A stretch of DNA of 63,253 bases, the filler included. It is 3 parts of 3 records of this genome, joined end to end, with 100 filler letters (N's around TTAATTAATTAA, not from the genome) between each part and the next. Parts side by side here need not be neighbours in the genome. Positions count along the whole stretch, not along the records: positions 1 to 23,339 come from SRR31156797_702; 2 more parts are not named here. One strand, given 5' to 3'. A model generated the notes under the pieces. That model searched no databases and was not told the origin of the DNA. It saw only the letters and a list, made by a program, of their open reading frames with translations. Positions within the stretch are counted from its first letter, which is position 1, and each line of letters begins with the position of its first letter. The position numbers and the translations under genes are program-made. Shown piece after piece: positions 159-19,129 of the stretch.

Positions 159-179
159 AAAGTGGTGGGAAAGTGGTGG
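159..179 (+). repeat. Tandem 10-mer AAAGTGGTGG x2, candidate integrase arm-type sites
   Basis: Exact direct repeat at 159-168 and 170-179 between the att core and the integrase start. Confidence 0.5.
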
Positions 180-203
180 TTTTGGATTCTGAAGGGGGAA
201 CAA

Positions 204-1469
204 ATGGCTAGACCAAAACTAGAAACTTCGACCAAGTTCAAAGGGGTCCGCTGGTACAAGCACGACACCCGCAAACATGGCATTAAATACGATCGCTGCT
301 TATCTGTCAGATACGCTCATGGCGGCAAACGCTATGAAAGCGTCCTTGGCTGGGAGACAGAAGGATGGTCTGAAGAAACAGCCTATCTCAAAAGAGCTGA
401 ATACCTCCACAACCTCAAAACCGGTGAAGGACCCTACTCCAGAAAAGAAGAACTCGCAGAAGAAAAGGAAACCAATGAGGCGACCAGAAAAGCTGATCAG
501 GAGAAAGCTGCCCAAGAACGCCTCGAGGCCATAACCTTCGGTACGGTCTTCGATGCCTACATGGAATGGGCAAAGACCAACAAGAAACACTGGGGCAACG
601 ATGAATATCGCTACCGTGTTCACCTTGAAAAGCATCTCCACGACAAGAGATTCAAGGAAATTTCAACCTTCCAGCTAGAAGAGATCAAGGCGAAGCTCCT
701 CAAAAAGCTTGCCCCTGCCACAGTGAAGCACTGCATTGTCGTTATCAGGCAAGTCTACAACCGGGCTCAGGAAGGAAGTCTGGGTATCGATGGTAAACCA
801 TTCGAATGGGAAGGACTGAATCCGGTCTCCGGGGTTAAGCTGAAGAATCTCGGCACACACAATGAGAAGATTCGCACCATCGACACACTTGATTCCAAAG
901 ATGGCAAACCTAGGCGCGATGAGAAACTGCTTATGGATATGCTCAAGGAAAAATCCTTCATTACATATGGACTAGCTATGACCAGCCTCTACGCCGGTTT
1001 AAGGTTCGCTGAGGCTGCAAACCTGAGGTGGATGCACATTGACCTCATCAGCGGACATATCAACTGTCTTGACGGAAAAGGCGGCTTAGATCGTAAGATT
1101 TTGATTCCGATCCACCCAAAGCTGAAAGTAGAACTCGAAGAACAAAAGAAACGTCTGGGTTCCCCTACTCCTGATGCGCTCGTCTGGCCCAATAGGAACG
1201 GCAGCACAGTCAACAAGATCAGCGCGACCTTCCCACGCGCAGTAAAAGAACTGGGCTTCAACAAAGGGATCGACGATAGACGCATGAAGCTCGACTTCCA
1301 TAGCCTGCGCCACAGCTTCGCAACCAGACTGGCCGATGCCGGTACTCCCCTAACCGTACTCCGAGACCTGCTGGGCCATCGTGACCTGACCATGGTCTCC
1401 AGATACGCTAAGTCCAGCCAAAGCATCGCCGACGAAGCCATTGCCCGTATCGGCGTGACTGACACATAA
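204..1469 (+). CDS. Tyrosine integrase
   Basis: Motifs AGLRFAEA, HSLRHSFAT, LLGH...MVSRY; start placed at ATG 204 after a GAAGGGGG RBS. Confidence 0.93.
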   Translation: MARPKLETSTKFKGVRWYKHDTRKHGIKYDRCLSVRYAHGGKRYESVLGWETEGWSEETAYLKRAEYLHNLKTGEGPYSRKEELAEEKETNEATRKADQEKAAQERLEAITFGTVFDAYMEWAKTNKKHWGNDEYRYRVHLEKHLHDKRFKEISTFQLEEIKAKLLKKLAPATVKHCIVVIRQVYNRAQEGSLGIDGKPFEWEGLNPVSGVKLKNLGTHNEKIRTIDTLDSKDGKPRRDEKLLMDMLKEKSFITYGLAMTSLYAGLRFAEAANLRWMHIDLISGHINCLDGKGGLDRKILIPIHPKLKVELEEQKKRLGSPTPDALVWPNRNGSTVNKISATFPRAVKELGFNKGIDDRRMKLDFHSLRHSFATRLADAGTPLTVLRDLLGHRDLTMVSRYAKSSQSIADEAIARIGVTDT

Positions 1470-1472
1470 AAA

Positions 1473-1502
1473 ATGCCGCATTGTCCAACGACAGTGCGGC
1501 AT
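1473..1502. terminator. Probable bidirectional terminator between integrase and fic
   Basis: ATGCCGCATTGT-CCAACG-ACAGTGCGGCAT hairpin between convergent genes. Confidence 0.65.
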
Positions 1503-1529
1503 ATAAAATTTTATAAACGACAACTCAAG

Positions 1530-2285
1530 CTAACGGCTACGACCTTCCTCATCCAGTCCCAGAGCAAACCAATAAGGCTTGAAACTTTCAACAACAAGCT
1601 TCTCGGTCATTTTCAAAAACGGACCATAGTCGAGCTTCACACAAGCAGCTTCCAGAGCTTCATAATATTTCAACCGCTCAGAATTCTGAAATACAACCGG
1701 CGGGAATCCACCTTTCATCAATTCAAGGTTCATCAGCAGCCGAGAAGTACGCCCGTTACCGTCAGCAAAAGGATGGATCTTCACGAAATCCACATGGACA
1801 CGGGCAGCGCGTTCAACAACATGCAGATCAGCTCCGTCACCGTTGTACCAATCCATGAACCGATCAATTTCATCCTGCAAATTCAGAAAATCCGGCGGCA
1901 CATGCTCGGCACCGGAAATAGTTACGTTCACAGTGCGGAACACCCCGGCATTACGATCATCAATCCCCTTCAGGATAAGGCTATGAATTTCCTTGATAGT
2001 ACGCACATCTAAAGGATCACCCTGCTCCACCAAAGCGTAGACAAGGTTGATAGCATGAGCATGGTTGGTAGCCTCAAGGTGCTCGGCAATAGATTTGCCA
2101 CCAACGGTCACGCCTTCAAGCACAACCTTGGTTTCCTGAAGCGTGAGAGTGTTCCCTTCAATGGCATTAGAGTTGTAGGTCCAACGCAGGGCCAGATCTT
2201 CACGCAGGTTCTTGACCACTTCGGGCGGAAGCGGCCTGTGTGCGTCGAGGCGGGATTTTAGGGTGTCGAGGATTTGTGTGTTCAT
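1530..2285 (-). CDS. Fic family protein (class II type, N-terminal inhibitory helix)
   Basis: Fic motif HPFADGNGRTSR; inhibitory motif SNAIEGN. Confidence 0.93.
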   Translation of the reverse strand: MNTQILDTLKSRLDAHRPLPPEVVKNLREDLALRWTYNSNAIEGNTLTLQETKVVLEGVTVGGKSIAEHLEATNHAHAINLVYALVEQGDPLDVRTIKEIHSLILKGIDDRNAGVFRTVNVTISGAEHVPPDFLNLQDEIDRFMDWYNGDGADLHVVERAARVHVDFVKIHPFADGNGRTSRLLMNLELMKGGFPPVVFQNSERLKYYEALEAACVKLDYGPFLKMTEKLVVESFKPYWFALGLDEEGRSR

Positions 2286-2516
2286 ATCTTTTGGTCAATC
2301 ATTTATATTTTAGTATAGGATTTTTTTAATTCCGCAAACCAAACTCAATTGATCAGCAACAATAACCATGAACTAGAAGAAACTCAATATATTCAAGGAT
2401 AAACTTTAATAAACAACCTTGTAAAACATCATCCGCTGATATAAACTACGTACCAGCCAACTCACAGACCTATGCTTCCACCCAACCAGCACCAACAACT
2501 TGATTTTTAGAATAAA

Positions 2517-5087
2517 ATGATAACTAACCCCCAAGACCAAGATTCAAAAATGCCCCGTCCTTTCCAAAGAGAGTGCGCTGAACAAAACGGCATGCGATCT
2601 CTTATATTTCTGGACAACTGGACTATATACAGTTCAATTCTGAAGTGGTGTCACAGCAACAATGTCTACAAAATATCAACACTGTGTAAAGATAACGACA
2701 GATATTACGGCAATTACATTGTAACATTCACAGACGAGCTATACGACGACAAAATTGCCACCCTCATACGTTTTTACTTATTACTTGTCGATAACTACGC
2801 TGTAGACAAAAATCAAATAGAACTATTCAGCGACGAAAATAAAAACATCTTCCTACAAGTAAACTTTGAAGCGTTTTCATATGGAGAAGGAGATACAAAT
2901 CTCAAACAAATATATAAAAAAATGACAGATATACTTCAGGGTCAAATTTTTAATGACAATTCAAGGATTGTAGCACCCATTATGATTAATCCATATACCC
3001 ACTACATTCCCTGTTTCTCTAGTGACCTACAGCCATATTTGACATTTGATTCTTTCAGCGAAACCTTAGACACCGGCAATGACACATCTCACTTACTTAT
3101 AGACCAACCAAACAACAAAAGAATTAACTGGATCGAATTCTATAATAACAAAAGACCAAAATTTTCACATAAAAAATCTTTACTACGCAGCGTTTATTTA
3201 GATGCAAAACGTGAAATTTCAAAAGAAGAAATAATTCCCCAACAGCACTTACCAAACCTTGAAGACTGCGATTTGCTTAAAAGTGTACTGGCAACAACAT
3301 CATGGACAGATAAAGACGAACTCAACTTTCTCGGTGGAATCTGCAATCATTTCGAGCTTCGATCTTTTCGACAGCTATGCATATATAGCAAAACATTAAA
3401 CCCAGAAATGCGCCAAGCCGACAAAGCCGCTTCATGGCTCAAATGTAAACTTAAAGCAAAAAGCTGCAAGGAATTAGCAGAAAATTTTAATTACAAATGC
3501 CCAGCTGAATGTAATGTAACTACCCCTTTAGCTCTTCCACAGACAACACCACTCCATACTGGACTAAATTCGCTATTTATTACAATTAACAACAACATCT
3601 ACTACGAAGACGAATATAGAAACAAAATAAAAGTATGCTCAGAATATGTATCTTCAACGAAAATCAATGACCAATACGAAAACTACTGGGGGCATTCTGT
3701 CTATTTTAAAAACACTTTTAATTATATAAAAATTGCAGGTAAGAGCAAAAAAAATATCTTAACCTATCTAGAACGTATAGGCATTAAAATATACAACAGA
3801 AACCTAGCATATCAATATGCAATAGACGCGGTAGTACATTATTCAAAAGACAAAATACCAGTTAGCATAACAGGAACCCCTCACGCTGGCTGGGTTGAAA
3901 ACAATCTTACGGCACCATATACATTCCCATATCGACGGCACACAGAGATCACTATGTCGCCATTCCTGTTTGGACCTAGTTACAAAAACGGTTTCAACTG
4001 TTCTGGAACACTAGAAGAATACCTTCAAGAGCTTTCTAGAATTCAACTCGATAACAATATGAAACTTGCGCTATCAGCAACTCTTGCTGGCCCTCTGCTA
4101 CGCCTGACAGAATCACCAAGCTTCGCAATCCACCTTTGGGGCGGCACACCAGAATATCGAAGACAAATCATAAAACTGGCCAGCTCTATTTGGGGAAATT
4201 CTCATTTTGCTGTTAGCTTCTCTCGCCTATCTGAAAACATTGGTGAAATTGCAGCAGCTCACAACGACAATACCATACTACTCAACATCAACCAATCTGT
4301 TAGCCAAACCAAGGCACACAACTTACTAAAGTCATTGCTCTCCGGAACATCCTCCGACACAGATTATGGCTCATCATTACGTCATATAATCCTCTCCGTG
4401 GGTCCCAACCCCATCCAAGTTAAAAATCAAGAAGCTAGAATAATCAACTTTGAACTCAAAAATTTCATTCCAACCAATTTCGATCACACCAAAACATTTA
4501 TCAACAACCATGGACACCTTGGACCTACTTTCATTCAAAAAATATCACCACCAACAACAATTAGAGAGATTTTTCACTCTAAACGAGCTTCATTTCCGTC
4601 TATGCTTAATAGCAAGCAACAAGAGCCTGCAATCATATTTACAGTATTGAAAACAGCTATTGAGATTGCATGCAACACCAAACTATTACCAATATATGCA
4701 AAAGATGCCTGCAATATGATAGATCAAATATTCTTTAACTGGCGCACAAATAGAACAGAAACGGAACAGAACGCTATCAAACAGGTACTGCATACAATGC
4801 AAAGGCATCATCAAAATGCCCGTTTTGAAGATTCCACAAAATGTTGTACTGGAACAGAATACGATGGATATCGATTCACTGAGTCAAACCGACAAGGGAT
4901 CCTTTTCCCTACACAGAAATTTAAAACCCTCTTTTGTGCCACAGTAAAGCCTAAACGATTGGCGGAGCTGCTGCTAAATGAAAAAATGCTCGTGCAAGAC
5001 AGGAATGGCAGTTTGAGCAGTTCCCACTGGGTCAAGAGTCTACGGAAGTCAGTTCGCGGCTATTTCATTCAATTTCCCCAAAAGTAA
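2517..5087 (+). CDS. Degenerate AEP primase-like + Cys domain + DUF927-like helicase protein, catalytic motifs apparently lost
   Basis: N-terminus aligns by eye to 5897-8395; C-terminal half has DUF927-like blocks (SGTLEEY, LALSATLAGPLL, IHLWGG, ASSIWG) but no GKT Walker A. Confidence 0.65.
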   Translation: MITNPQDQDSKMPRPFQRECAEQNGMRSLIFLDNWTIYSSILKWCHSNNVYKISTLCKDNDRYYGNYIVTFTDELYDDKIATLIRFYLLLVDNYAVDKNQIELFSDENKNIFLQVNFEAFSYGEGDTNLKQIYKKMTDILQGQIFNDNSRIVAPIMINPYTHYIPCFSSDLQPYLTFDSFSETLDTGNDTSHLLIDQPNNKRINWIEFYNNKRPKFSHKKSLLRSVYLDAKREISKEEIIPQQHLPNLEDCDLLKSVLATTSWTDKDELNFLGGICNHFELRSFRQLCIYSKTLNPEMRQADKAASWLKCKLKAKSCKELAENFNYKCPAECNVTTPLALPQTTPLHTGLNSLFITINNNIYYEDEYRNKIKVCSEYVSSTKINDQYENYWGHSVYFKNTFNYIKIAGKSKKNILTYLERIGIKIYNRNLAYQYAIDAVVHYSKDKIPVSITGTPHAGWVENNLTAPYTFPYRRHTEITMSPFLFGPSYKNGFNCSGTLEEYLQELSRIQLDNNMKLALSATLAGPLLRLTESPSFAIHLWGGTPEYRRQIIKLASSIWGNSHFAVSFSRLSENIGEIAAAHNDNTILLNINQSVSQTKAHNLLKSLLSGTSSDTDYGSSLRHIILSVGPNPIQVKNQEARIINFELKNFIPTNFDHTKTFINNHGHLGPTFIQKISPPTTIREIFHSKRASFPSMLNSKQQEPAIIFTVLKTAIEIACNTKLLPIYAKDACNMIDQIFFNWRTNRTETEQNAIKQVLHTMQRHHQNARFEDSTKCCTGTEYDGYRFTESNRQGILFPTQKFKTLFCATVKPKRLAELLLNEKMLVQDRNGSLSSSHWVKSLRKSVRGYFIQFPQK

Positions 5088-5532
5088 TCGCGACAAAAAA
5101 CAATTAAACGCAGTATCATTTACACCTTACTATAATCGTTTTTACCTACCATACAAAATACATAAAATTAATGACATACAGAATACATTTATAATTAACA
5201 CAAATACAATAAATCAAATACAAATACATTTAACTAAATACATATTTCACAATTAAAACAACACACTTAAATAAAAGAATTAATTCACCAAAACTGCTAA
5301 ATAATCTGAGAATTAGTATATATTCAACCTGCCTCTTCATTAATATATACAATAACTATTCATGATCTTCAAAATTATGATTTTATAAAAATAGATAGGC
5401 TCTCTTTACCTATCCACTAAGTCGCAAAAACTAAGATATTGAAATCAAACAAACCTCCTGAAAATACCGAAAAATATTTTTCTACAAACTTTCGAAATCC
5501 TATGTGAACAAATTTAAACTTAGGAGATCTGA

Positions 5533-5796
5533 ATGGAAAATTTGCGAAATCAGCTTATTGAATTTCTTCCTCCCGTATTTGCAGCAACTTCCCTTGACGC
5601 ACTTACTGGGCAGGCCGTCAAATGGAGGACGATACAAAATTTCCGCGCAAGAAAAGACCCACCAAACAAGATTCCAAATAGGTGTTTTTTACGTGATGGC
5701 AAACGAAAAATACTGATTGTTAGAGACCCATTTCTTGAATGGTGGCTAGCACGGCTAAGCTACAATGAATCAGAAGATGAGGTAGTAGAACAGTGA
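5533..5796 (+). CDS. Small DNA-binding protein, excisionase/AlpA-like
   Basis: 87 aa, AGGAG RBS, basic wHTH-like pattern (GKRKILIVRDPFLEWW), directly upstream of the primase gene. Confidence 0.55.
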   Translation: MENLRNQLIEFLPPVFAATSLDALTGQAVKWRTIQNFRARKDPPNKIPNRCFLRDGKRKILIVRDPFLEWWLARLSYNESEDEVVEQ

Positions 5797-5847
5797 TGGC
5801 AACGGGCACAGCTGTACACAGACTATCGACACGATAACCCCGCAACC

Positions 5848-5884
5848 AGGGCTGAGATAAACTAAAATCTCAGCCCTTTTCTTT
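5848..5884 (+). terminator. Terminator-like hairpin directly before the primase RBS
   Basis: AGGGCTGAGAT-N8-ATCTCAGCCCT followed by TTTCTTTT, then AGGAG. Confidence 0.6.
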
Positions 5885-5896
5885 TAGGAGTAAAAA

Positions 5897-8395
5897 ATGA
5901 CAAAAATTCGTTACTGGGCACCTACCAACGGAAACAAGCCTGGGCAATGGCAGATAATTGAAGACTCATCAAATGTTGTGACACGCGCAAAAGAACAAGG
6001 AGCTGCATTCATATCAACAATGGCATTTGAATATGAACCCAAAGAAGACAAATCGGAACCATATCGCTACGGAGACCTTGTTTTCGACCTTGACAATGAA
6101 GACGACCCAGAAATTGCAAGACAGGACTGTCTAACCATCGTCCATCACTTGGAGAAATACGAAGTAGACCCTAACGACCTACGCTTTTTCATATCTGGCA
6201 AAAAGGGGTTTCATATTGTTGTACCTGATTACATCCTCGGGGCACACGATGGGGATCCCATGTTACCCAAAATATACGGTAAGATAGCCACATTTATGGC
6301 TACACGTCTCTGGCCCGAAGACGCGAACACAGTAGACATGACCATGTACGCAATGGGCAAGGGTAAGCTTATCCGTGTTGCAAACATCCGCAGAGAAGAA
6401 GGCACATATAAAGTCCCAATATCATGGCAAGAGCTTCAAGAACTCAACTACTCGAAATTAATCCAGCTAGCATCTAAACCTCGTACTATAGCACTAAAAT
6501 CATGGAATATGCATATTCCCCAAAGACTTTACGGACTCTATAACACCTTTAAAATGATCGAACACAACCCAAAAACCAGCAAAATTGTTGACGCTTCAAA
6601 ATTCATAAAAAATTGTAAGTTCATCCAACACTGCCTAAAAAATGCAAAAACCCTTAGTGAGCCAGAATGGCACGCATTGTTATCTGTAATCAAAGGATTA
6701 GGAAAAGATGGGTACTGGCTTGCTCATGATTTTAGCTGTAATTACCCAAATTACTCTCATGATGAAACTAAAAACAAGCTAAGCCGAGTTGAACCGAATA
6801 TCCGTTGTGAAAAGATTAAGGAACTTTACGACTGTGGGTGTGACTGTGGCATTTCGTCACCATCCAAGCTGTGGACAAAAGCATCCGCAGTCGATTCACA
6901 AGGCGCAGCCAAGCACAGTGATTCTGTAAAACTACTAGAGCTAGCCGAAAAATTCACCCTTTACCCATCTGATGAAGGAGTGCCCTATGCTGATATCAAC
7001 ATTGATGATTGCCGTAAGACAATTCACATAGAAACTAGAGAATTCAGACAGTTAGTTAGTTTCTTATTCTATCAGGAAACAGGCAAACCACTCAAAAATA
7101 ATCTTGCAAGTGACCTGATCCTTGACCTTACCGCCAAAGCAATTCATGGCCCATACGAACCCCGCAAGATTTATACAAGAATAGCCCATTTAGAAGATGC
7201 TATTTATATTGACCTCTGCGACGAATCGTGGCGAGCTATCGAAATCACAGCTGCAGGCTGGGATATAGTAGATTCTCCACCTGTCCGATTTCGACGTGTA
7301 AAAAGTATGCAAACTCTGCCTGAGCCTGTGCGTGGTGGTAAAGTGAGCGAACTAAGAACCTTGCTGAACATCGATTCTGAAGAATCAATTTTGCTGGAAG
7401 CGTGGATGATCGGCACACTAACTCCGGGACCATACCCAATCCTCATTCTCGAGGGCGAACATGGCACAGCCAAAAGCACCACCACCCGCATATTGCGACA
7501 AATAATTGATCCATGTGTGGGAATCAGTCGACCTTCCCCACGCAACGAACAAGACCTAATAATTGCGGCGAATAATTCCCATATACTTGCTTTAGACAAC
7601 CTGTCTGGGGTCCAGCCTTGGCTCTCGGACGCTCTATGCAGAGTGGCAACGGGTGGAAGTTTCTCTACTCGTAAACTCTTCACAAATGACGAGGAATCAA
7701 TACTCACAGTAATAAAACCAATTGTTCTCAATGGTATAGATAAGATCGCAGAAAGACATGATCTTGCAGACAGAAGCCTCCGGGTAACATTACCATTTAT
7801 ACCTCCTGAGAAACGTATGACTGAAAACCAACTAAATGCAGCCTTCAGACGTGCAGCCCCAAAAATCCTAGGAGGCCTATGCGATGGACTGGCATGCGCA
7901 CTAAAAAACTTAAAAAATGTAGAAATCAAAAATCCACCACGTATGGCTGATTTCACTCATTGGGCTGTTGCAGCAGAAGATGCTATGCCGTGGAAAAAGG
8001 GTGAATTCTTCGAAAAGTACTCTAGGAACCAAAGTGAATCCATCCAAAGTGCCTTGGAGTCTGATGAGATTGCAAATGCCATTAAAATTCTCATGAACCA
8101 AACAAGCTTCTGGGAAGGCAAACCGACAGACCTGCTTAATGCACTGGACACTATTGTCGATGAAAAAGTTACTCAACTGAAATCTTGGCCGAAAACACCA
8201 GTAGCCTTAGGTAAACGACTGACTCGGACCCAGGCATTTCTGAGAAAATCAGGTGTTGATATCATCAGAGAGAAAGGTGGCAATCGAACTATTACGATCC
8301 AGAAAACTTATGAAGAATCAGAGCCAACTTCCATAGGAGCAACAGAAGAAGCAAAGTCTCAAACAATAAGCATCGATCAGTTCTTTAATGAATAA
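5897..8395 (+). CDS. AEP-family primase fused to a Cys-rich domain and a P-loop helicase/ATPase
   Basis: AEP motifs VFDLD and SGKKGFH; Cys cluster (NCKF...RCEK...CGCDC); Walker A GEHGTAKST; Walker B-like LALDN. Confidence 0.8.
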   Translation: MTKIRYWAPTNGNKPGQWQIIEDSSNVVTRAKEQGAAFISTMAFEYEPKEDKSEPYRYGDLVFDLDNEDDPEIARQDCLTIVHHLEKYEVDPNDLRFFISGKKGFHIVVPDYILGAHDGDPMLPKIYGKIATFMATRLWPEDANTVDMTMYAMGKGKLIRVANIRREEGTYKVPISWQELQELNYSKLIQLASKPRTIALKSWNMHIPQRLYGLYNTFKMIEHNPKTSKIVDASKFIKNCKFIQHCLKNAKTLSEPEWHALLSVIKGLGKDGYWLAHDFSCNYPNYSHDETKNKLSRVEPNIRCEKIKELYDCGCDCGISSPSKLWTKASAVDSQGAAKHSDSVKLLELAEKFTLYPSDEGVPYADINIDDCRKTIHIETREFRQLVSFLFYQETGKPLKNNLASDLILDLTAKAIHGPYEPRKIYTRIAHLEDAIYIDLCDESWRAIEITAAGWDIVDSPPVRFRRVKSMQTLPEPVRGGKVSELRTLLNIDSEESILLEAWMIGTLTPGPYPILILEGEHGTAKSTTTRILRQIIDPCVGISRPSPRNEQDLIIAANNSHILALDNLSGVQPWLSDALCRVATGGSFSTRKLFTNDEESILTVIKPIVLNGIDKIAERHDLADRSLRVTLPFIPPEKRMTENQLNAAFRRAAPKILGGLCDGLACALKNLKNVEIKNPPRMADFTHWAVAAEDAMPWKKGEFFEKYSRNQSESIQSALESDEIANAIKILMNQTSFWEGKPTDLLNALDTIVDEKVTQLKSWPKTPVALGKRLTRTQAFLRKSGVDIIREKGGNRTITIQKTYEESEPTSIGATEEAKSQTISIDQFFNE

Positions 8396-8591: not shown

Positions 8592-11500
8592 TTACTGCAC
8601 AGCCTTCCGAGAAACTTTCCACAAATCAACAATAGCCCCTCCTGATATTCTTGACAATTCCTTCATCAAATCTGGCCTAATAATCAGATCGCACCCCAAA
8701 AACTCAGCAGGATCTGTCCACAACGACCAACTCCCCCTGACACGCCATGACCGAAAAACTACAGCAGGTGACATATCCCGGTCCTTTAGCATCAGGGGAG
8801 CACCGAAAGCAGGTAATGAAAACCACATACGACTTTGTAATATTGGCGGGGGAAAGAAGATATAACTGTCGCAAAGCCAATCAGAGACACGTTCCAATGG
8901 AACTAATGGCCCTACCGGCAAGCCTAAATAGTAGTCCTGCACCAAATTTGACCACCAACCGTCAAATTCATCTGGACAAAATGGAAAAGCATCTTCTGGA
9001 ATTTCTAATCCAATTGGCTTAACAATAGCTCCTGAAAAAACAGTCACAACTTCTGTAGGTTTCGAATGCCAAGCAGAGGAATTGGTATAATATTGTCGTT
9101 CAAACAACGCCAACCGAGTCCAACCATGGTAGGTGGAATTATCATCAATCACGAACAGTTCATTTTCACCAGACGAACAAGTTACAGGTTTTGGATGGTT
9201 GGGGCGCGGTACACGACTAGCCGCAACACCTAAATGAGTTTTAATTTTGGGCAAAATTGACGCAAGAACTTCTTCCTCAGTCTCTGTGGACCAACGCCCT
9301 TGCTTCCATAAATACTCAGATAAGCCAGTGAGTTGATCATTCAACGCTGTAATATAAAGTTCTTTTTCCCATGATAAGACCGGCGTTGGTGGATTCGCAT
9401 CTCCATCACGGCCAATTGCCAGTTCACGGACCGATCGACCATGTTCGCTATTATATTCCCCACTATACCAAATCTCTCGCCAACGCCCTGAAACATAATT
9501 CTGCAACTCTGGCCATGTTTCAGCGAGCCCCTCCGGAATTTTACAAACTCTTCCTGACAATCCGTCAGAAATATCTTCAAATTCCTGAAAACAACTTTTT
9601 CCACGCGGAATTCGCAACCCCACTCTTTCTAACAATATTCCAGCTAATTTACTTGCACCCCAGCTATCACCAGCAGCATAAAGTTCTAGGAGTTTGGACA
9701 CCCCACAAACAATTACATCTGTAGATCTACCAAGTTCATTTAAAACATTAAAAAGAATCAAAACAGAGGACATATGCGCCCCATGTGACAGCCACCAACC
9801 AAAAGGTTTTATAACATCTTGCGGACAATTCTTAAAAGCCCAAGCAATGCCACCCAGGGCACCAAATTTACGAGAGATCCTAGGCTCAGCCATACGTGCT
9901 AGAAGAACTGCTATCAAAGCTTCAGTCAGTGTCCAATCAAATTCATTGTCACATTCAAAACTAGCAAAAGGACCACCATCATTAGGGGATAGAGGTAACC
10001 TATGTGCGACAACAGCAAATATCTCATCCCATGACTTATTTGCTGCACTCTCATCTCCCCAATCAGACACTCGTTTAATCAAATTTCGCGAAAGTCCGGA
10101 AGGATACCAACTGGCTTTAAGCGCATTACCAATTTCATCTGAAATTGTCCGCAGAGCTAACTCTCGATCAAGTTGTATTGCTCTATCCATCCAAGCTGAA
10201 TGCTTACTCCCTCCTAAATTAAGCCACCCGCCGCCGCCTCGAGACGATGTGTATGCAAGCACATAGGCAATCGTCGCTAAATCAATATATCCTGCATTCT
10301 CCATAGATTCTGCCAAACGACTTAACGGATGCGATGCAGCTGAAGGATAATGCGTAATATCCCTTGCAATAAAACGAAGAACACGTTTGGAATCTTCTTC
10401 GCGTCCTTTAGCTGCAAAATCGCAAAGAATATACCCTAGCGAAAGAACAACCTCATCCCATGCAGTGGGGTCTTCCCAGTTATAGAAATTATTCCCAGAA
10501 CGTAATCCGGCAAGAATGCCAACCATGCTCGCATCCTGAGGGAAAGGAGAAATACGTTCCCGCGTATCCCTATCTTTACGTCTTTCCCTGTCATAAATTT
10601 GTCTTGAATTAGCTTTATTCAATTCTTCAGAGGCAACCGGAGGATATGATATGCACAAATCTTTTTCATCTACCACCTTATTAAAATGAGAATAGATTTC
10701 TGTTTGATGGCTATGTTTGCTGTCATTCAAAATTTCTGCGCTAGCCCGAGCTAACAGACCATCTGTCTCTTCTCGCTCGTCACTGACAAGCTGTAAAACT
10801 GGAGCCAATCTTAAATCAACTTCTTTTACTGCTTCACTTTCATGCTCAACTTCAAAATTTAAAGAACTTAATAATGCATCAATAAGTACAGGATCAACAT
10901 CACCAAGAATGTGTTTAGCAACGTCTTGTAAAGCACCTTCCAACATCCAGCCATCAATCCCATCATCCTCAACTATTGTTTGCGCTAACAACATGACAGA
11001 TTGAACAGGAGAAAATTCTATCAATCTACCAAACCAAGCATTTGGACAATTCCTAGTTTCTCGGAGGTCCGTATGTCTAAGTACAGAATTGGTTAGACAC
11101 TGACACTTCTGTAGAGCTTTCGATGACGGAGCACTCTCTATCAAATCAAACAGCGTAATATCCTTATGGAAGCCATATGCAGCCAAAAATCTCGATGCAC
11201 TATGCCATGCTTCCAATGCTGCTGCTTCATCTCCAGCAGCCTTTCTTGCACGAGCTAGACGCATAGCAAAATCGGCATGTGTCGGATAATAAGTCCCTAC
11301 CTTATCAAATCTCTTTGCCTGTTTCTCAACACCAGCCCGGACTATCGCTCCAATTCTTGACGTAGAAACATGTGGTAAAAGCAAATCAAGAACAGCAGCT
11401 TTGCGTAACGGCCCGCCATCTTCACAATCATAACGTGTACCTGTCTCGGCACAGACTTCTAAAAGAGCAGAAATAGCCTGTTTCCAGTCATCCTCATCCT

Positions 11501-14500
11501 CTAAAAACGACAACGCCAATTGAATGCTCGTGTAAATAATACGCTCTACTTGATATAAATCACATGCACGCGGCTTTCCCGTAAAAGGATGTATGTCTTG
11601 TATAATGGCTTTGAAAGCTGCTTCTATATCTCCCTTTTCCCCCTTGCGTTTAGCTGCTTCCACAGAAGCAATCTCAAGCACAAACTTCAACCAGCAGCGA
11701 TACCACCCCGGCCCGAAAAGCCTTCTATATTCATTCTTGACAATTTTAACTGTTGATTCATCGCCATTCATAAAAAGCCGCGCAGAAGACACCCAAGAAA
11801 AAACATTTACAGCATGCTCATCATAATTCTCTTGGAAAATATCAATATCACTTAACAATATCGCATGCTGTACGCATGCATCATAAGCAGCCCCATGAAA
11901 CAAACACGCAATCGCAAGCTCTGGAGAATCAATGTGCTCAACAGCTTGATTTGCGGCTATTGCTGCAGCATCAAAATTTCCTAATCTTTTATATTCATCT
12001 GCCAAGCCCAATCGCAAAACAGCAGCAACTTTTGGTGATAACTTTCTTTCCTCAGATGGATAGTCTGCAAGAGCGGCTATACGTTCCACAAGTGAAGTAC
12101 TGTGCATTCGCGCCAGCCGAGCTGCAACTTGCCGGACAAACCCAGTTCTGAAAGTTCCCCCCAAGGATCTAAGATACCGGACAACCCTGCCTATTATTCG
12201 ACTGTCGCCCAGTCGAAGACGTCCTTGTAATACAGCAATCTTTAAACGCTCATCTTCCACTAAGAAATCTTGATCATCCGGCATATTTCTAAGAATAGGG
12301 AACTCTGTATCATCCCGCAGCTCCAAATATTCACGCCAAGGGGCAGTTCCACCGGCATCATCTATTAATTGGCACGCCATAAGACCATCTTCACGTCCCC
12401 GCATTACTCGCCCATCGAAAATCAATCTCTCAGCAAACGCATCAACTCCAAACAGGTCAAGATAAGCATTCCAATAATCGCCCCAAAAGCCATGAATTTC
12501 TTCAAATGCTGTGTATGCAGATCTATGCAACTCTGCACATCGAACCATTACAGGCCAATTCTGCGAAGAGGCAGCAACATCAGCCGCGAGAGCAATATTT
12601 TTCTCTATTGCTTGCAACGGATGTGCATATGCCAAGCTATCAGACACAAAAGTTGTGCTCACATGCTCCAAGACTTCACTTCCGCGCCCAGCACGCCTTA
12701 AAGCCGGTAGCAAAAATCTATAACTTCGAGCATCTTTAAATAAGCCTCGCCCCACAAGCCAACTAATCACAGGCTCTAGCGCACCACCTAATGATCGCCC
12801 TTGCCGCATCAACTCATCCTTCATGAATCTACGAAAACTTTCATGAAAGATACGGACTCCACCCTGTCCTTGCGTTATCGTAAGAACGGACTTTAAACTG
12901 TCTAAAGCAGGCTTAACAAAACCTCTCATGAATGCAGGAAAAATCTCACGCAGGTCTTCTTCTGAAACTGAAAAATCTATAACACCCAGAACATCCGCTA
13001 TGCCCTGAGCTTCCTGACTCGCTTTGCTGTATAGATATGCATAGTACTCGGCAATATCCCCAGCCAAAGCAGGAGTATTCTCAAGCCACTCGACTGGATC
13101 AATGATATTTCCTGATTTAAGACCAATCGCCAGACCATGAGATAAATATCTAGTATAAAGAGGATTCCCATCAGCTCGATCAGCCAAAACATCAAGAATT
13201 CGTTGCTGAAAACCTTGCTCAGTAATTCCAACAATATTCATGGCCTCTTCAACGCCATGACGCCGAGCCAAAGCCTTAATGTCGCTTGTGTCCCATGCTG
13301 GCAATTGATGCTCAACAAGTGAGTCTCCCCACCATTCATGTAAAGACCTTAAATGCTCCCCTGGTTGCGAACCAATAATAATTCCGACCCCAGTGGGAAT
13401 ATTGAGCGTTGCGAGACGATCAACAATATCAACATCTCCATCACTTAATGAAAATGCATCAGCCTGGACACGCGCTATGTGGTCCAAACCATCGACAATC
13501 AAAACGACTGGACGGTCCAGTTTAGCAGCCTCTACCAACTTGTCTTCAAGCTCTCTTAGCCCTGCCGAATAACGGGCACCTCCCAAATCTAGTAAAGCAG
13601 GTTCGCCATCCACCAACTCGGCAAGAAGATTGCCGAACAGAGTATTCGTCGTTATGCGTTGTTCAACAAGATCATCTCCAGGTTCCAGATAACAATAATG
13701 CCTTGCTACAATAGCACCTTCTTGCTCCAATTCTTCAGAAAGGCGTGTCAATTCCCAGGATTTTCCCGCTCCGGGTTGTCCAACTACCAACTGAAGTTTG
13801 CCCTCTATAGCAGCCCGTAATAATTCACCCCGAAAATTTGGGCGGTTATGAAACTTTGAAGCATCTACAGGAAAAGATTGCGAAACCCGCCCAAAATCTG
13901 TCCTTATTACCAAATTACGTTCAACATCAGCAGGAATTAAAGACAGCTCTTTGGTTCTGGCCAAATTTGCAAGAGAAATAGCCAAAGCGGCAACATCATC
14001 AGGATTTCTGTCGTGGTTCGGATAGCGGCCTATTCCAACACCATCAGCCAACAACTTAACCAAAGCAGATTCCATTTCTTTTGGAGTGGTGAGATCTGTT
14101 GAAGTCTGGGGCAATGAAATTTCAATTACGAACCGTTTGCAAAATTCTAAAAAATCTTCACGATCAAACTCATCTTCGCGCCCAACAGCCAAACAAGTCC
14201 AAATTGGAGCCATGCCCTCTGGCCATATTTCCCCACCGCGCAATTGGAAAAAAGAAGGACTTCCCCCCTCAAATGTAGGCTCTGCAGAACAATCCTCTAA
14301 AAATTTTAATAATTCATCATCAGAAGAAGGTGGCTGCCATGTGGCACACAACCTATATTCATGGGCTGGACCGCGAACATGAGTCAAAACAAGTTTGTCC
14401 ATCCGGAGAGAGGACCTTTCACCTGTAAAATCTGCTATCTTAAGTGGACGATTAGGATCCTGGCTAGATTTGAATTGTCGGCGGATACGCTGCCCTTTTT

Positions 14501-14657
14501 TCACAACTTCGAGATCGTCCAGATTGTCGTCTTTGACCTGCTTGCAATCAACAATCACCTGATCATAACGATCCACCATAGATCGAACTAAAACATAAGC
14601 AGTTGCAATGTCCTGATATCGATATCCCCTATGAGCCGCTTTAAGCCTACCGTTCAT
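8592..14657 (-). CDS. Large STAND/NACHT NTPase with N-terminal Cap4-like PD-(D/E)xK nuclease (Avs-like antiviral candidate)
   Basis: N-terminal AAHRGYRYQD...DDLE...QFK; Walker A GQPGAGKS; Walker B VLIVDGLD; GNPLY and IFHESF motifs; long helical C-terminus; ATG 14657 has a GGAG RBS. Confidence 0.75.
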   Translation of the reverse strand: MNGRLKAAHRGYRYQDIATAYVLVRSMVDRYDQVIVDCKQVKDDNLDDLEVVKKGQRIRRQFKSSQDPNRPLKIADFTGERSSLRMDKLVLTHVRGPAHEYRLCATWQPPSSDDELLKFLEDCSAEPTFEGGSPSFFQLRGGEIWPEGMAPIWTCLAVGREDEFDREDFLEFCKRFVIEISLPQTSTDLTTPKEMESALVKLLADGVGIGRYPNHDRNPDDVAALAISLANLARTKELSLIPADVERNLVIRTDFGRVSQSFPVDASKFHNRPNFRGELLRAAIEGKLQLVVGQPGAGKSWELTRLSEELEQEGAIVARHYCYLEPGDDLVEQRITTNTLFGNLLAELVDGEPALLDLGGARYSAGLRELEDKLVEAAKLDRPVVLIVDGLDHIARVQADAFSLSDGDVDIVDRLATLNIPTGVGIIIGSQPGEHLRSLHEWWGDSLVEHQLPAWDTSDIKALARRHGVEEAMNIVGITEQGFQQRILDVLADRADGNPLYTRYLSHGLAIGLKSGNIIDPVEWLENTPALAGDIAEYYAYLYSKASQEAQGIADVLGVIDFSVSEEDLREIFPAFMRGFVKPALDSLKSVLTITQGQGGVRIFHESFRRFMKDELMRQGRSLGGALEPVISWLVGRGLFKDARSYRFLLPALRRAGRGSEVLEHVSTTFVSDSLAYAHPLQAIEKNIALAADVAASSQNWPVMVRCAELHRSAYTAFEEIHGFWGDYWNAYLDLFGVDAFAERLIFDGRVMRGREDGLMACQLIDDAGGTAPWREYLELRDDTEFPILRNMPDDQDFLVEDERLKIAVLQGRLRLGDSRIIGRVVRYLRSLGGTFRTGFVRQVAARLARMHSTSLVERIAALADYPSEERKLSPKVAAVLRLGLADEYKRLGNFDAAAIAANQAVEHIDSPELAIACLFHGAAYDACVQHAILLSDIDIFQENYDEHAVNVFSWVSSARLFMNGDESTVKIVKNEYRRLFGPGWYRCWLKFVLEIASVEAAKRKGEKGDIEAAFKAIIQDIHPFTGKPRACDLYQVERIIYTSIQLALSFLEDEDDWKQAISALLEVCAETGTRYDCEDGGPLRKAAVLDLLLPHVSTSRIGAIVRAGVEKQAKRFDKVGTYYPTHADFAMRLARARKAAGDEAAALEAWHSASRFLAAYGFHKDITLFDLIESAPSSKALQKCQCLTNSVLRHTDLRETRNCPNAWFGRLIEFSPVQSVMLLAQTIVEDDGIDGWMLEGALQDVAKHILGDVDPVLIDALLSSLNFEVEHESEAVKEVDLRLAPVLQLVSDEREETDGLLARASAEILNDSKHSHQTEIYSHFNKVVDEKDLCISYPPVASEELNKANSRQIYDRERRKDRDTRERISPFPQDASMVGILAGLRSGNNFYNWEDPTAWDEVVLSLGYILCDFAAKGREEDSKRVLRFIARDITHYPSAASHPLSRLAESMENAGYIDLATIAYVLAYTSSRGGGGWLNLGGSKHSAWMDRAIQLDRELALRTISDEIGNALKASWYPSGLSRNLIKRVSDWGDESAANKSWDEIFAVVAHRLPLSPNDGGPFASFECDNEFDWTLTEALIAVLLARMAEPRISRKFGALGGIAWAFKNCPQDVIKPFGWWLSHGAHMSSVLILFNVLNELGRSTDVIVCGVSKLLELYAAGDSWGASKLAGILLERVGLRIPRGKSCFQEFEDISDGLSGRVCKIPEGLAETWPELQNYVSGRWREIWYSGEYNSEHGRSVRELAIGRDGDANPPTPVLSWEKELYITALNDQLTGLSEYLWKQGRWSTETEEEVLASILPKIKTHLGVAASRVPRPNHPKPVTCSSGENELFVIDDNSTYHGWTRLALFERQYYTNSSAWHSKPTEVVTVFSGAIVKPIGLEIPEDAFPFCPDEFDGWWSNLVQDYYLGLPVGPLVPLERVSDWLCDSYIFFPPPILQSRMWFSLPAFGAPLMLKDRDMSPAVVFRSWRVRGSWSLWTDPAEFLGCDLIIRPDLMKELSRISGGAIVDLWKVSRKAVQ

Positions 14658-15029
14658 AATTTCTCCATATAGATATCCGAATAACCTAACAGTCACCCTA
14701 CACAGAAGTACCAACCGAAATATTCATGAAACCGATTTCTTAGCATTAAACATCAATTGAAATATTTATTTATCCCGATACACATAAACGGTTACAAAAT
14801 CTAATAGCAAACACTTTTCTCAAGTATGGAACACCATAAAAAGTTGCCCTCCCCCGAAATAAGCCTACCATTAATTTTGCCATAATTAATGGACAGTACA
14901 AATCTGAACGGCTCAATCGTATTCGAGTCAAAACCAATTGTCATTTAAACGGGCTAAACATTGGAAGATAAATCTGGGCTAGGTTAGTGCTGAACCAGGT
15001 AATAAGATGACAAACATCTTATCTTTAAT

Positions 15030-15057
15030 AAAAAAAGGGGCTGAAATACAGCCCCTT
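15030..15057 (-). terminator. Terminator for the leftward small-protein operon
   Basis: AAGGGGCTG-AAATA-CAGCCCCTT with an A tract on the left (U tract on the minus strand). Confidence 0.65.
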
Positions 15058-15168
15058 AGCAATCATACGGCTTTCACCGTTCATTTTATTTAATTTTCTA
15101 AATATACTACAAAAGCAACGAAAAAAAACACTTATACAGAATAATTCTCCCAAGATTTCACAAATTAA

Positions 15169-15660
15169 TTAGTTATTGATTTGTTCACAGTCAGGGCATT
15201 TCCAAGACTTTCCTTTATTTAAAAGTAAGCCATACCAGACAAAACACCAGAATCCGGAAGTGAACAGCATCATCAACAAGTGTAAGCTGTGATTGATCAT
15301 ATTGCGTGTCGGCTCAACCTTTCCGCCACAATTGTTGCACAATAAAATTTCGTGTCTCTCAGTTCTTTTCTCGTCTGCCCTCCTGTAAGCATACTGATAA
15401 ACTTTATACATGATGAATCCAAAGAACATCGCAGCAACAATGGCAAAGCCAAAGATATTAATAAAAAATGAATCAACTCTATATGAAGAAAAAGTTTTGA
15501 TTGCATATGAGAATAGAAAAAATACACCTATGACGGATGAATAAGATACTATCTTACCCAAAAGTCTGGCTTCTCCATAACCTGCATTCCTTCTATAGTG
15601 ATTTACTGCTCCTGCAACCAACGCTAAGACAAGAACAATTAAAAACGGTATTGCTAACAC
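15169..15660 (-). CDS. Membrane protein with C-terminal split zinc ribbon (LITAF-like architecture)
   Basis: Three N-terminal hydrophobic segments, then CNNC - hydrophobic stretch - CPDC. Confidence 0.6.
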   Translation of the reverse strand: MLAIPFLIVLVLALVAGAVNHYRRNAGYGEARLLGKIVSYSSVIGVFFLFSYAIKTFSSYRVDSFFINIFGFAIVAAMFFGFIMYKVYQYAYRRADEKRTERHEILLCNNCGGKVEPTRNMINHSLHLLMMLFTSGFWCFVWYGLLLNKGKSWKCPDCEQINN

Positions 15661-15696
15661 ATGTATTCCTTGTTGCTCGACAGCTAACCATTTAAA

Positions 15697-15783
15697 TTAG
15701 CTTTTGCTGACCCTGCCGACTAAAAAACCGACTCCATAAGCGACTGCAAAGCAAACTACTACACCGACTAAGATAGTAACCAT
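15697..15783 (-). CDS. Putative 28-aa hydrophobic micropeptide
   Basis: MVTILVGVVVCFAVAYGVGFLVGRVSKS*, AGAGGA RBS; not in the ORF track. Confidence 0.45.
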   Translation of the reverse strand: MVTILVGVVVCFAVAYGVGFLVGRVSKS

Positions 15784-15813
15784 AAAATCCTCTAATATTT
15801 TGATCCGTTAAAA

Positions 15814-15882
15814 CTATTTTCGTCCAGCCAGTACACCTAAAAGAAATCCGACAACTAAAACAATTACTAGAATGAAATGCAT
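15814..15882 (-). CDS. Putative 22-aa hydrophobic micropeptide
   Basis: MHFILVIVLVVGFLLGVLAGRK*, AAGGGA RBS; not in the ORF track. Confidence 0.4.
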   Translation of the reverse strand: MHFILVIVLVVGFLLGVLAGRK

Positions 15883-15932
15883 AATATTCCCTTTTCAAGG
15901 TATTCGATACAAAGCAAAATTTGCTAATGAAT

Positions 15933-16304
15933 CTATTTTTCAAGCGAACTCAAGTCGATAAACATGTTTGCAAATTCATGGAATTCTTTATCTTCAATGC
16001 CCAATAAAAAAGAGTGTAAACTCATGAAAGTTACGCCTTTCTCAAGAGGGTTTTCTCTTTCAGCCATACGCCAATACAGTGAGGTGAAGGCTTCTTGCCG
16101 ATCAGAGTTGAGCCCTTTAAAGTCAACAAGTTCTTGTAGGAACTCATATACAACCGCCTCTTTGCCGCTGCTTTCAATGTACATATTGCTGTAGTGCTCG
16201 ATCCTTTCATCGTTCATCGATTTTTCACTAGCGGTAACGACCTGTTTAAACTGGCTGGCTATATCATTCTGAAAATTACTGACATTTTGTCTGACAGAGT
16301 TCAT
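15933..16304 (-). CDS. Hypothetical protein
   Basis: 123-aa ORF with AAGGAG RBS, divergent from the XRE gene. Confidence 0.6.
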   Translation of the reverse strand: MNSVRQNVSNFQNDIASQFKQVVTASEKSMNDERIEHYSNMYIESSGKEAVVYEFLQELVDFKGLNSDRQEAFTSLYWRMAERENPLEKGVTFMSLHSFLLGIEDKEFHEFANMFIDLSSLEK

Positions 16305-16457: not shown

Positions 16458-16799
16458 GTGAGTAAATCTACCGAAATTGTTGGAAAAAATATCAGGCGGC
16501 TACGTAAAGGCTTGAACCTCAGCCAGCAGCAAATGGCTGAGCGCGTGGGTATAAGCTACAAATATCTTGGGGAAATTGAGCGTGGAGAGGTCAATCTGTC
16601 AGTTGAAATTCTGATGAAGATTTCCAATGCGCTACAGATTGCGCCTGAGAAGATGCTTGCGCCAGAGGACCAAGGAAACAGCACACTCCTTGAGGCGCAG
16701 GCCGTTCTGGCGGAGCTATCTCCGCAGCAGTTGGAGATTGCGTTAGATATGATAAAAGTGTTGAAAAAACATTCAAATACCGACCTTAAAAGCGGTTAA
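16458..16799 (+). CDS. XRE-family HTH transcriptional regulator
   Basis: IRRLRKGLNLSQQQMAERVGISYKYLGEIERG, cro/C1-type HTH. Confidence 0.9.
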   Translation: MSKSTEIVGKNIRRLRKGLNLSQQQMAERVGISYKYLGEIERGEVNLSVEILMKISNALQIAPEKMLAPEDQGNSTLLEAQAVLAELSPQQLEIALDMIKVLKKHSNTDLKSG

Positions 16800-16863
16800 G
16801 TGCTTCTCAAATAATTTCAGACATATATTACTCCTGTAGAAAGAAGATCTTTTTTAATTTCTC

Positions 16864-16903
16864 AGTCCCTGTCCGGTCTTTCCGAGCAGGGACTTTTCTA
16901 TTT
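16864..16903 (+). terminator. Terminator-like hairpin before the ERF RBS
   Basis: AGTCCCTG...CAGGGACT stem followed by TTTCTATTT, then AGGAGG. Confidence 0.55.
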
Positions 16904-16916
16904 CAGGAGGTCGTAT

Positions 16917-17594
16917 ATGAATGAAACGAACCTTTGTTCCCCGGAAATCACGGAACTGGCTGGGGCAATGCTCAGGGTGCAGCAGGCTTTGAAACCTGCT
17001 GCAAAGGATGGACAGAACAATTTTACAAACAGCAGGTACGCCAGCCTACAATCGGTAATGGAAACGTGCCGGGAAGCCCTGCTGGCGAACGGGATCTGGC
17101 TGACCCAGCTCCCGGTGCAGGTGGAGAATGGAAGCCTTGGATTGGTCAGTAAGATCGTCCATGCGGAATCAGGACAGTGGCAGTCTTCCCTACTGGTGAT
17201 GCCGCTGCCGAAAGGAGATCCGCAGGGCTACGGATCAGCCATGACCTATGCCCGTCGTTACGGACTTACGGCTTTGGTCGGAATAGTTACTGAACACGAT
17301 GATGACGGTGAAGGGTCGTGCCGCCCGCAAAATCAAAACAATGAATATAACCCCGGCAGACACTTGGGTTCTGCAACTCACACAGCATCCAAAAGTCAGT
17401 CTGAAGGTAACGGGTCAGGACAGCCTTTACCTCGTCTTGAGGGAGTTCTGTACCGCAAGGAAAAAGCACGGGATGGCAAGCCCTGCATTCTGGCAACAGG
17501 TAACACACTTCCGCAAAAAGATTCATTACGGAAGGCCGGGTTTCGCTGGGATGGTAATCGCAAATTATGGTGGAAGTATGAGCAGGCCGCATAG
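16917..17594 (+). CDS. ERF-family single-strand annealing protein
   Basis: SRYASLQSV, HAESGQW, PQGYGSAMTYARRYGL, DDDG motifs. Confidence 0.88.
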   Translation: MNETNLCSPEITELAGAMLRVQQALKPAAKDGQNNFTNSRYASLQSVMETCREALLANGIWLTQLPVQVENGSLGLVSKIVHAESGQWQSSLLVMPLPKGDPQGYGSAMTYARRYGLTALVGIVTEHDDDGEGSCRPQNQNNEYNPGRHLGSATHTASKSQSEGNGSGQPLPRLEGVLYRKEKARDGKPCILATGNTLPQKDSLRKAGFRWDGNRKLWWKYEQAA

Positions 17595-17622
17595 CCGATA
17601 AAAAAATTTAACGCAGCAAATG

Positions 17623-17652
17623 AAGCGCGTCTCTTAGGAGGCGCGCTTTTTT
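17623..17652 (+). terminator. Terminator-like hairpin after ERF
   Basis: AAGCGCGTCTC-TTAG-GAGGCGCGCTT plus T run. Confidence 0.65.
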
Positions 17653-17671
17653 ATTGCCTAAAGGAGTAAAT

Positions 17672-18058: not shown

Positions 18059-18059
18059 C

Positions 18060-19055: not shown

Positions 19056-19078
19056 AGAATACACGCAAATTTCATAAT

Positions 19079-19110
19079 CGGGGTGGCTTCGGCTGCCCCG
19101 CTTTTCTTTT
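19079..19110 (+). terminator. Terminator-like hairpin before the DUF3150 gene
   Basis: CGGGGTGGC-TTCG-GCTGCCCCG plus CTTTTCTTTT. Confidence 0.6.
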
Positions 19111-19129
19111 GCGGAAAAAGGAGGAAAGC

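Follow-up and report, generated by a model that had tools for sequence, protein, structure and literature searches.

The question raised by this locus is what an integrative island would keep a full-length primase-helicase gene for once the residues required for its chemistry have been replaced. The window, which means here the whole stretch of DNA that was analysed, has a length of 63,253 nucleotides and is joined from three parts with filler letters in between; positions 1 to 23,339 come from record SRR31156797_702, and its left 22 kb are an integrative island. Two large genes of this island, named P1 and P2 in the following, form the centre of the analysis:

2517 to 5087, plus strand: P1, 856 amino acids, an unbroken open reading frame (ORF) recognised by a DUF927 match and by profile comparisons
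5897 to 8395, plus strand: P2, 832 amino acids, an archaeo-eukaryotic primase (AEP) domain followed by a four-cysteine domain and a P-loop ATPase (match to phrog_16345 'primase', E value 7e-27)

When mobile elements encode a primase-helicase fusion, it is normally taken for a replicase. The clade of P1 lacks every catalytic motif of both enzymes, and as far as can be judged from the sequence P1 is most likely a catalytically dead copy of a primase-helicase in which both enzyme halves are inactive. The reading preferred here, to which a probability of roughly 0.5 is given, is that P1, derived from a PriRep-type helicase, would bind DNA in a cassette-specific manner and serve as an initiator or regulator without catalysing a reaction.

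The relation between the two proteins is only weakly visible by plain BLASTP (E value 0.002, 15 of 66 residues identical). Comparison of the P1 and P2 family profiles over the N-terminal 340 residues with hhalign gave a probability of 96.2% and an E value of 2.5e-9 over 269 columns. The blocks paired in this comparison, YYGNYIVTFTD with RYGDLVFDLD, ...LFSDENKNIFLQV with ...FFISGKKGFHIVV, and GEGDTNLKQIYKKM with HDGDPMLPKIYGKI, in addition to the cysteine blocks, are exactly those which had been aligned by the initial annotation of this DNA, made from the sequence alone, and both reading frames are intact as it had stated. Taken by themselves, the AEP part yielded an E value of 1.2e-6 and the cysteine part one of 8.3e-7, and a second P1 subfamily, which was aligned separately, matched the N-terminal half of P2 with 5.5e-9. 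Reversed profiles, used as controls, gave E values of 0.58-0.84, and comparisons of N-terminal with C-terminal halves gave 0.08-0.5. By these profile matches the N-terminal domain of P1 is an AEP fold homologous to that of P2. An AlphaFold2 model of residues 1-345 of P1 was of middling quality (predicted local distance difference test, pLDDT, 68; predicted template modelling score, pTM, 0.63), and a Foldseek search with this model listed the same proteins, none of them significant singly (best E value 0.018).

The cysteine domain, which had been described as common to both proteins, is indeed shared, and C251, C317, C328, and C332 of P1 are invariant in 17 family members. The Pfam family PriCT_2 (PF08707) matched neither P1 nor P2; a P2 relative with 40% identity (L033) reached an E value of 0.007 with it, which is under the cut-off, and the cysteine domain of P2 matches positions 355-448 of NF040561 PrimPol_Msp with an E value of 3.6e-6. 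The part of P1 following this domain belongs to the DUF927 family, which includes the MCM-like AAA+ replicative helicases SaPI Rep and SCCmec Cch (PF06048, E value 1.5e-13, 51.5 bits at a cut-off of 22.6). Further matches were found to phrog_8841 'DNA primase/helicase' (4e-19) and to the single solved chain 8tch_A 'Pathogenicity island protein', which was hit with an E value of 3e-6 by P1 and of 2e-17 by the family profile. P1 can thus be divided into a dead AEP-like domain (about residues 1-230), a four-cysteine PriCT-like domain (about 231-345), a DUF927/MCM-like AAA+ domain with a degenerate P-loop (about 346-700), and a conserved C-terminal domain (about 771-856). These last 86 residues are also present in active DUF927 proteins.

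The ATPase half of P2 is of another type. It is a RepA/VapE-like P-loop domain which between residues 520 and 570 contains an invariant, unusual P-loop GExGxAKS (GEHGTAKS in P2) and a Walker B sequence LDN, and it resembles AAA_25/RepA-like proteins. It had no Pfam match above threshold, a VapE-like match with an E value of 0.016 being seen in one orthologue only, and a search of the P2 profile against the PDB yielded nothing. In the profile comparison of the C-terminal halves of P1 and P2 a relation was not detectable (E value 0.13), which argues against a recent duplication of P2 as the source of P1, in line with what had been proposed at the outset. A side observation on the 188 homologues of P2 that were found is that the C-terminal half occurs fused to varied N-terminal modules, comprising Toprim, DUF3854, Prim-Pol, PolA exonuclease/polymerase, and DnaJ.

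All catalytic positions of the primase are occupied by other residues in P1. The aspartates D64 and D66 of motif I in P2 align with T70 and T72 in P1, and other members of the P1 family have K/L, R/E, K/P, K/Q, or S/D there. The motif II histidine H106 aligns with F112, which is phenylalanine or tyrosine in the members alignable at this place, and D147 of motif III aligns with an isoleucine in P1 and with isoleucine or leucine in its family, this last alignment being the least certain. In P2 itself D64, D66, G101, K103, G104, D147, K526, S527, and D567 do not vary among 11 orthologues. The helicase half of P1 is affected in the same way: the sequence at the Walker A position is HLWGGTPEYRR, which contains no GK[ST], and the Walker B position is LLNIN where DUF927 relatives mostly read LDE. 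In the stretches of DUF927 relatives that were aligned to the P-loop region of P1, GK[ST] was found in 134 of 147. Across the 16 loci with a P1 gene, the position of the Walker lysine is invariably an arginine, GK[ST] occurs in none, and the Walker B aspartate is missing from all. The loss of the AEP motifs and of both Walker motifs, as read from the single sequence before, therefore holds for the whole family, and the losses appear to be ancient.

The 16 loci stem from 14 genomes among 401 of one bacterial family (the one holding locus L005), from the window, and from a metagenome locus (L001). The evidence suggests that this family is Desulfovibrionaceae; that the host of the window is akin to the searched genomes was judged solely by its island backbone, the DNA of which is 88-90% identical to theirs. 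An exhaustive search of representatives found full-length relatives of P1 at 46, 39, 27, and 28% identity in addition to fragments. A word-based homologue search returned one fragment only, pattern scans of genome and viral contigs with the P1 alignment and P0130 found no locus, and the pattern scan of metagenomes found L001 alone. No P1 was seen in 400 further genomes sampled from the same phylum at an E value of 1e-25 or in the nearest genome (G001), and tblastn of P1 against plasmid and phage collections gave no match.

The members of the P1 family are open frames of 827-895 codons at 13-46% identity (17 sequences), and besides the four cysteines H539, R548, and D584 are invariant in their alignment. 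The ratio of nonsynonymous to synonymous substitution rates (dN/dS) is 0.16-0.27 for P1, from few measurable pairs with a dS of 1.2-1.7, which is near saturation; the comparable values are 0.06-0.18 for P2 and 0.02-0.04 for the small ORF SM87 described below. By this measure P1 is kept by purifying selection. Collecting homologues and determining dN/dS had been suggested as a check, and no neutral decay was found; the idea of a double pseudo-enzyme which is kept thus agrees with a whole family of full-length frames having the same losses. In the subfamily with the loop HxWGG conservation is highest in the cysteine domain (43%) and in the last 86 residues (45%) as compared to the AEP-like domain (26%) and the ATPase (32%).

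The position of P1 within the islands is constant too. In 15 of the 16 loci it is located between the integrase, with or without the ORF S179, and SM87; the remaining locus begins at a contig edge. In the window these neighbours are:

162 to 1469, plus strand: tyrosine integrase at the island end (Pfam Phage_integrase, E value 1.3e-23)
1473 to 2012, plus strand: S179, an ORF of 179 amino acids in the conserved left backbone, with homologues adjoining the integrase in L109, L116, L118, and L119
5533 to 5796, plus strand: SM87, an ORF of 87 amino acids and the most conserved gene of the backbone

S179 had no match in Pfam, NCBIfam, or PHROG. SM87 is 72-87 amino acids long across the loci at 56-72% identity and possibly is an AlpA/excisionase-like helix-turn-helix (HTH) protein, judging by a match to Pfam HTH_17 in one of 15 members (E value 0.18).

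What follows SM87 is not constant. A P2-type AEP primase-ATPase was found there in nine of the 16 loci, so that the active relative next door, which the initial annotation had pointed out, is frequent and not a fixed companion. One locus (L107) has a P2-type AEP fused to an active DUF927 (GDSSCGKTT, CLDE), the N-terminal half of which matches the P2-type AEP at 1e-95, and five loci have a protein of about 200 amino acids with YagK/YfjJ_C and REP_ORF2-G2P matches (HUH-Rep-like), accompanied by RNase H in four of the five. Fusions of a P2-type AEP N-terminal half with an active DUF927 were observed in L107 at 13195-15966 (923 amino acids) and in L160 at 315-3149 (944 amino acids), and this form is likely ancestral to P1. 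Another island bearing SM87 has at the replicase position (L158, 3550-6351) a protein of 933 amino acids in which Pfam recognises an AEP-TOTE domain (PF22548, 2e-52), a kind of primase tied to conflict systems.

Sister islands which lack P1 have the same YfjJ-RNaseH-ERF-MoxR-DUF3150-VWA backbone, and one of their integrases is close to that of the window (phmmer E value 6e-296). In five of them (L151, L152, L154, L155, and L156) the slot between SM87 and the integrase is filled by an active AAA_25 (RepA-like) helicase of 390-773 amino acids with the P-loop AxxGxGKT; in three cases, L151, L152, and L156, a C-terminal HTH was recognised by Pfam. This argues that P1 occupies the initiator-helicase slot of the island. 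The AAA_25 gene was seen to be convergent with SM87 in L152, L154, L155, and L156.

Another finding was that P1 is exchanged between islands together with its flanking DNA. The elements concerned are the following:

2293 to 5490 (approximate boundaries), plus strand: P1 swap cassette, consisting of the upstream region of P1, the P1 gene, and an AT-rich repeat region
5100 to 5330, plus strand: AT-rich region (25% GC) with six direct AATACA repeats, candidate iterons or operator
5848 to 5877, plus strand: terminator-like hairpin between SM87 and P2

In the islands L001 and L112 the DNA is 96% identical over a block that starts about 40 bp ahead of SM87 and extends past P2, and their integrase genes are 94% identical. 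Between these blocks about 3 kb of L001 (9945-12909) are unrelated to the counterpart in L112: in L001 a clade-A P1 on the plus strand is accompanied there by an AT-rich repeat region, and L112 has a P1 with an HFHGG-type loop on the minus strand. L108 and L110 show the same pattern, and between the window and its sister islands L109, L118, and L119 homology is interrupted from position 2292, some 225 bp ahead of P1, to about 5470. As unrelated P1 alleles are found within near-identical islands, P1 and the AATACA-repeat region behave as a swap cassette. The near-identical P2 genes (96% DNA identity) which adjoin unrelated P1 alleles argue against a co-evolved pair of P1 and P2. As the cassette boundary precedes the start codon of SM87 by about 40 bp, the promoter of the SM87 operon belongs to the P1 cassette.

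The spacer between P1 and SM87 in the window has 445 bp and 25% GC, and it contains AATACA at 5157, 5182, 5203, 5217, 5223, and 5237, all on one strand within 5157-5242. This count of six was reached in 0 of 1000 shuffles, and the same holds for the five copies in L108 and the six in L109; two copies are present in L107 (reached in 9 of 1000 shuffles). The AT-rich spacers bearing these repeats adjoin P1 genes of the HxWGG type. AATACA was not found in the four HFHGG-type loci tested (L005 and L110-L112), three of which (L110-L112) have P2 genes 90-98% identical to those of the repeat-bearing loci. The repeats accompany the subfamily of P1. The hairpin following SM87 could attenuate read-through into the replicase gene; a comparable GC hairpin with a T-run was read by eye between SM87 and the start of P2 in L001 (about 13190-13230). 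A scan for promoters and terminators gave no enrichment over shuffles, and no Rfam family was found within positions 1-23000 of the window. It was also observed that a conserved inverted repeat, ATCCTATG...CATAGGAG, lies over the Shine-Dalgarno sequence of SM87 at about 5490-5530 and at the same place in L107-L118. It falls just within the conserved block starting about 40 bp upstream of SM87 and may be a translational control hairpin.

Related systems can be compared with this arrangement. The Rep proteins of the Staphylococcus aureus pathogenicity islands (SaPI), which are DUF927-type helicases, are described in a published study as recognising their iterons by a C-terminal winged helix, the iterons being located directly downstream of rep around an AT-rich centre; binding and melting of the origin are stated there to be independent of ATP, and Walker A lysine-to-alanine mutants to be unable to replicate (NAR 2022, PMC9371898). 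P1 resembles SaPI Rep and PriRep5 in its DUF927 ATPase core, in its primase-helicase fusion architecture, in the short direct repeats of the AT-rich region that directly follows its gene, and in residing on an integrative island with an integrase nearby. It differs by the arginine in place of the Walker lysine, by the absence of the Walker B aspartate and, in the clade of the window, also of the glutamate, by a primase domain that is dead as well, and by being exchangeable independently of the replicase. The P1 repeats all have the same direction, whereas the iterons of SaPI are said to form opposed sets. By analogy, P1 looks like a SaPI-type Rep stripped of motor and primase with the DNA-recognition parts kept. 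Primases of mobile elements of the PrimQH type consist of an AEP, a PriCT/Zn domain, a P-loop ATPase (DUF927, DUF3987, or VirE), and a winged helix, as outlined in the paper by Kazlauskas et al. 2018 (PMC5862659). P1 has its AEP, cysteine, DUF927, and C-terminal domains in the same order, and an active counterpart is present in sister island L107; the difference is that P1 is devoid of any catalytic motif. Among the terms searched in that paper an inactivated version is not mentioned, the one match to inactivation being an engineered mutant. In the open-access literature no dead AEP-DUF927 family, inactivated primase-helicase, or Desulfovibrio islands of this kind were found to be described.

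The following mode of action is proposed for P1. Its ancestor would have been a self-loading primase-helicase with the order AEP, PriCT-like cysteine domain, DUF927/MCM-like ATPase, and C-terminal DNA-binding domain ('PriRep'). P1 would have lost primer synthesis and ATP-driven translocation and yet have been retained as a core gene of integrative islands which carry defence systems. It would use its best conserved parts, the four-cysteine domain and the C-terminal domain, to contact the repeats of its own cassette, in which the SM87-replicase operon also has its control region and the origin is probably located. There it might label the origin or melt it, or control whether the replication and excision operon is expressed, or both, and the chemistry would be left to the downstream replicase, which is P2 in the window, or to enzymes of the host. 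Binding of direct repeats beside an AT-rich region in the absence of ATP, often combined with autoregulation, is the way in which iteron-binding plasmid initiators (RepA, RepE, pi) and the alpha protein of phage P4 work. The plasmid initiators have unrelated winged-helix Rep folds and P4 alpha is an active enzyme, and P1 would differ from both in being a large inactivated AAA+/AEP fusion.

Several observations weigh against this proposal. The glutamate following the lost Walker B aspartate is kept in 12 of the 16 loci and is lost in the clade of the window (LLNIN, AVNIS, AINFN, AINFS), so that residual nucleotide-linked behaviour is conceivable. The clade-A locus L001 contains a single AATACA, a count reached in 277 of 1000 shuffles, the intergenic regions of the HFHGG subfamily are short (68-159 bp) with repeats not obvious, and the correlation of repeats with subfamily is confounded by shared descent. 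The profile of the C-terminal domain, which would contact DNA, had no significant match among the solved structures of the PDB or in Pfam. P1 is split into two ORFs in two of the 16 loci (L112 and L118), and its closest relative (92%) is in pieces, P0004 and P0129 on contigs of 3972 bp and a third fragment P0131, which indicates that P1 is not indispensable. Finally, for the five loci with the HUH-Rep-like protein no need is expected for a separate origin-melting initiator, which favours regulation over initiation.

The weight is shifted towards regulation also by the independence of P1 from the type of replicase, by the promoter inside the cassette, and by the arrangement of the genes: P1 and SM87 are divergent in 10 of the 15 assessable loci, with 68-159 bp between them in nine and an AT-rich region of 449 bp in L109. 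These features are the reason why a sensor-regulator similar to Stl is kept as the main rival. Stl master repressors of the SaPI are encoded next to the integrase gene and divergently from the replication operon, and they show high allelic diversity, as does P1. According to this explanation, which is a good deal less probable than the preferred one, P1 would keep the SM87-replicase operon silent as long as the island is integrated and be released from it by a replication protein of a helper phage or conjugative element, for which the dead body of the primase-helicase would be the bait. The vicinity to the integrase, the divergent orientation, the place of the promoter, and the indifference to the replicase type all agree with it, and the extreme divergence of the alleles in otherwise near-identical islands is like that of immunity or specificity genes. 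P1, however, has no detected repressor-type domain and no relation to Stl in sequence or fold, and repression by it is hypothetical; we know of no inducer and, to our knowledge, an AAA+-derived repressor of 850 amino acids has no precedent. A more general proposal, as tentative as the previous one, assigns to the hypervariable and doubly inactive primase-helicase of this island family the role of an interchangeable module for specificity or immunity, in which protein and repeats together would set when, and in answer to which helper or competitor, excision and replication start.

A role in interference, in which P1 would poison the replisomes of phages or rival elements or bait the neighbouring Avs-like STAND sensor, is doubtful. 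Conflict genes, too, typically have hypervariable alleles in a fixed slot, and the islands do carry defence cargo. This cargo, which was typed in four loci only, is an Avs-like STAND protein in the window, Fic and BREX in L001, Druantia in L005, and type I restriction-modification (RM) with KwaB in L116, and some loci have no cargo between the backbone parts. A STAND gene neighbours P1 in one of the 16 loci, namely the window, and with cargo this variable the suggestion of a decoy for STAND, made in the initial annotation with co-occurrence of the genes as a check, is unsupported and was rejected; from the non-catalytic roles listed there, the one related to replication is the best reading. 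P1 moreover has no effector domain and no match in PADLOC, and the different ATPase families of P1 and P2 make mixed rings of dead and active subunits unlikely.

The chance that P1 is still an enzyme working with non-canonical residues, either with an arginine-based P-loop and the Walker B glutamate or with an acidic pair displaced within the AEP domain, is estimated to be slightly smaller still. The loop H-x-[WHY]-G-[GS]-x4-R is strongly conserved, including the invariant H539 and R548, the second Walker B position is a glutamate in most loci, and D73 and E74 come after the lost DxD in the P1 of the window. Against this, the clade of the window has lost the glutamate too, the Walker serine/threonine and the glycine preceding the lysine position are not conserved, no acidic residue near motif I is conserved across the members, the histidine of motif II and the aspartate of motif III are gone, and the formerly catalytic domains are the least conserved parts of the protein. 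A decaying pseudogene left over from a former replicase, for which the loss of all catalytic motifs and the split or fragmented copies would speak, was rejected as highly improbable, being contradicted by intact frames at such low identity, invariant cysteine, histidine, arginine, and aspartate residues, the dN/dS values, and a constant position in 16 loci.

Outside the P1 module the island contains two further parts:

8592 to 14714, minus strand: STAND NTPase, 2040 amino acids, variable defence cargo (Pfam AAA_16/NACHT; PADLOC Avs1b, 1.9e-10)
16917 to 21642, plus strand: right backbone with ERF recombinase, an ORF of 134 amino acids, a MoxR-type AAA_5/CbbQ_C ATPase, DUF3150, and a CobT/VWA protein

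The likeness of the STAND NTPase to Avs1b is weak, the PADLOC match being limited to residues 399-633 with long N- and C-terminal regions that have no family match, and the protein may be a sensor or effector of the Avs type that has not been described so far. The right-hand module, spanning 16.4-21.6 kb, also includes an HTH gene, and its gene set is present in L115, L118, L119, L154, and L156 as well. On the DNA level positions 1-2292 of the window are 88-90% identical with sister islands L109, L118, and L119, and positions 16798-22120 are 80% identical with L118; the backbone of ERF, in some cases RNase H, MoxR/CbbQ ATPase, DUF3150, and CobT/VWA has 72-80% DNA identity to the window. Directly beyond the end of the right backbone a XerD-like tyrosine recombinase was seen at 22338-23303, with 84% DNA identity to L119. 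Past about 22 kb the GC content of the window falls to 33-37%.

For the annotation of such islands it follows that an automatic label of 'DUF927' or 'primase/helicase' would misassign proteins of the P1 type as replicases. In the P1 clade, DNA recognition by PriRep-type initiators appears to be naturally uncoupled from their motor role, and near-identical islands with different P1 alleles are ready-made swap experiments. P1 points to a control module mobilising islands with Avs, BREX, Druantia, and RM systems in genomes of the sulfate-reducer type. If it is true that protein and repeats act as a specificity module, an inactivated replicative machine would have become a sensor-regulator which is analogous to Stl but derived from a replisome.

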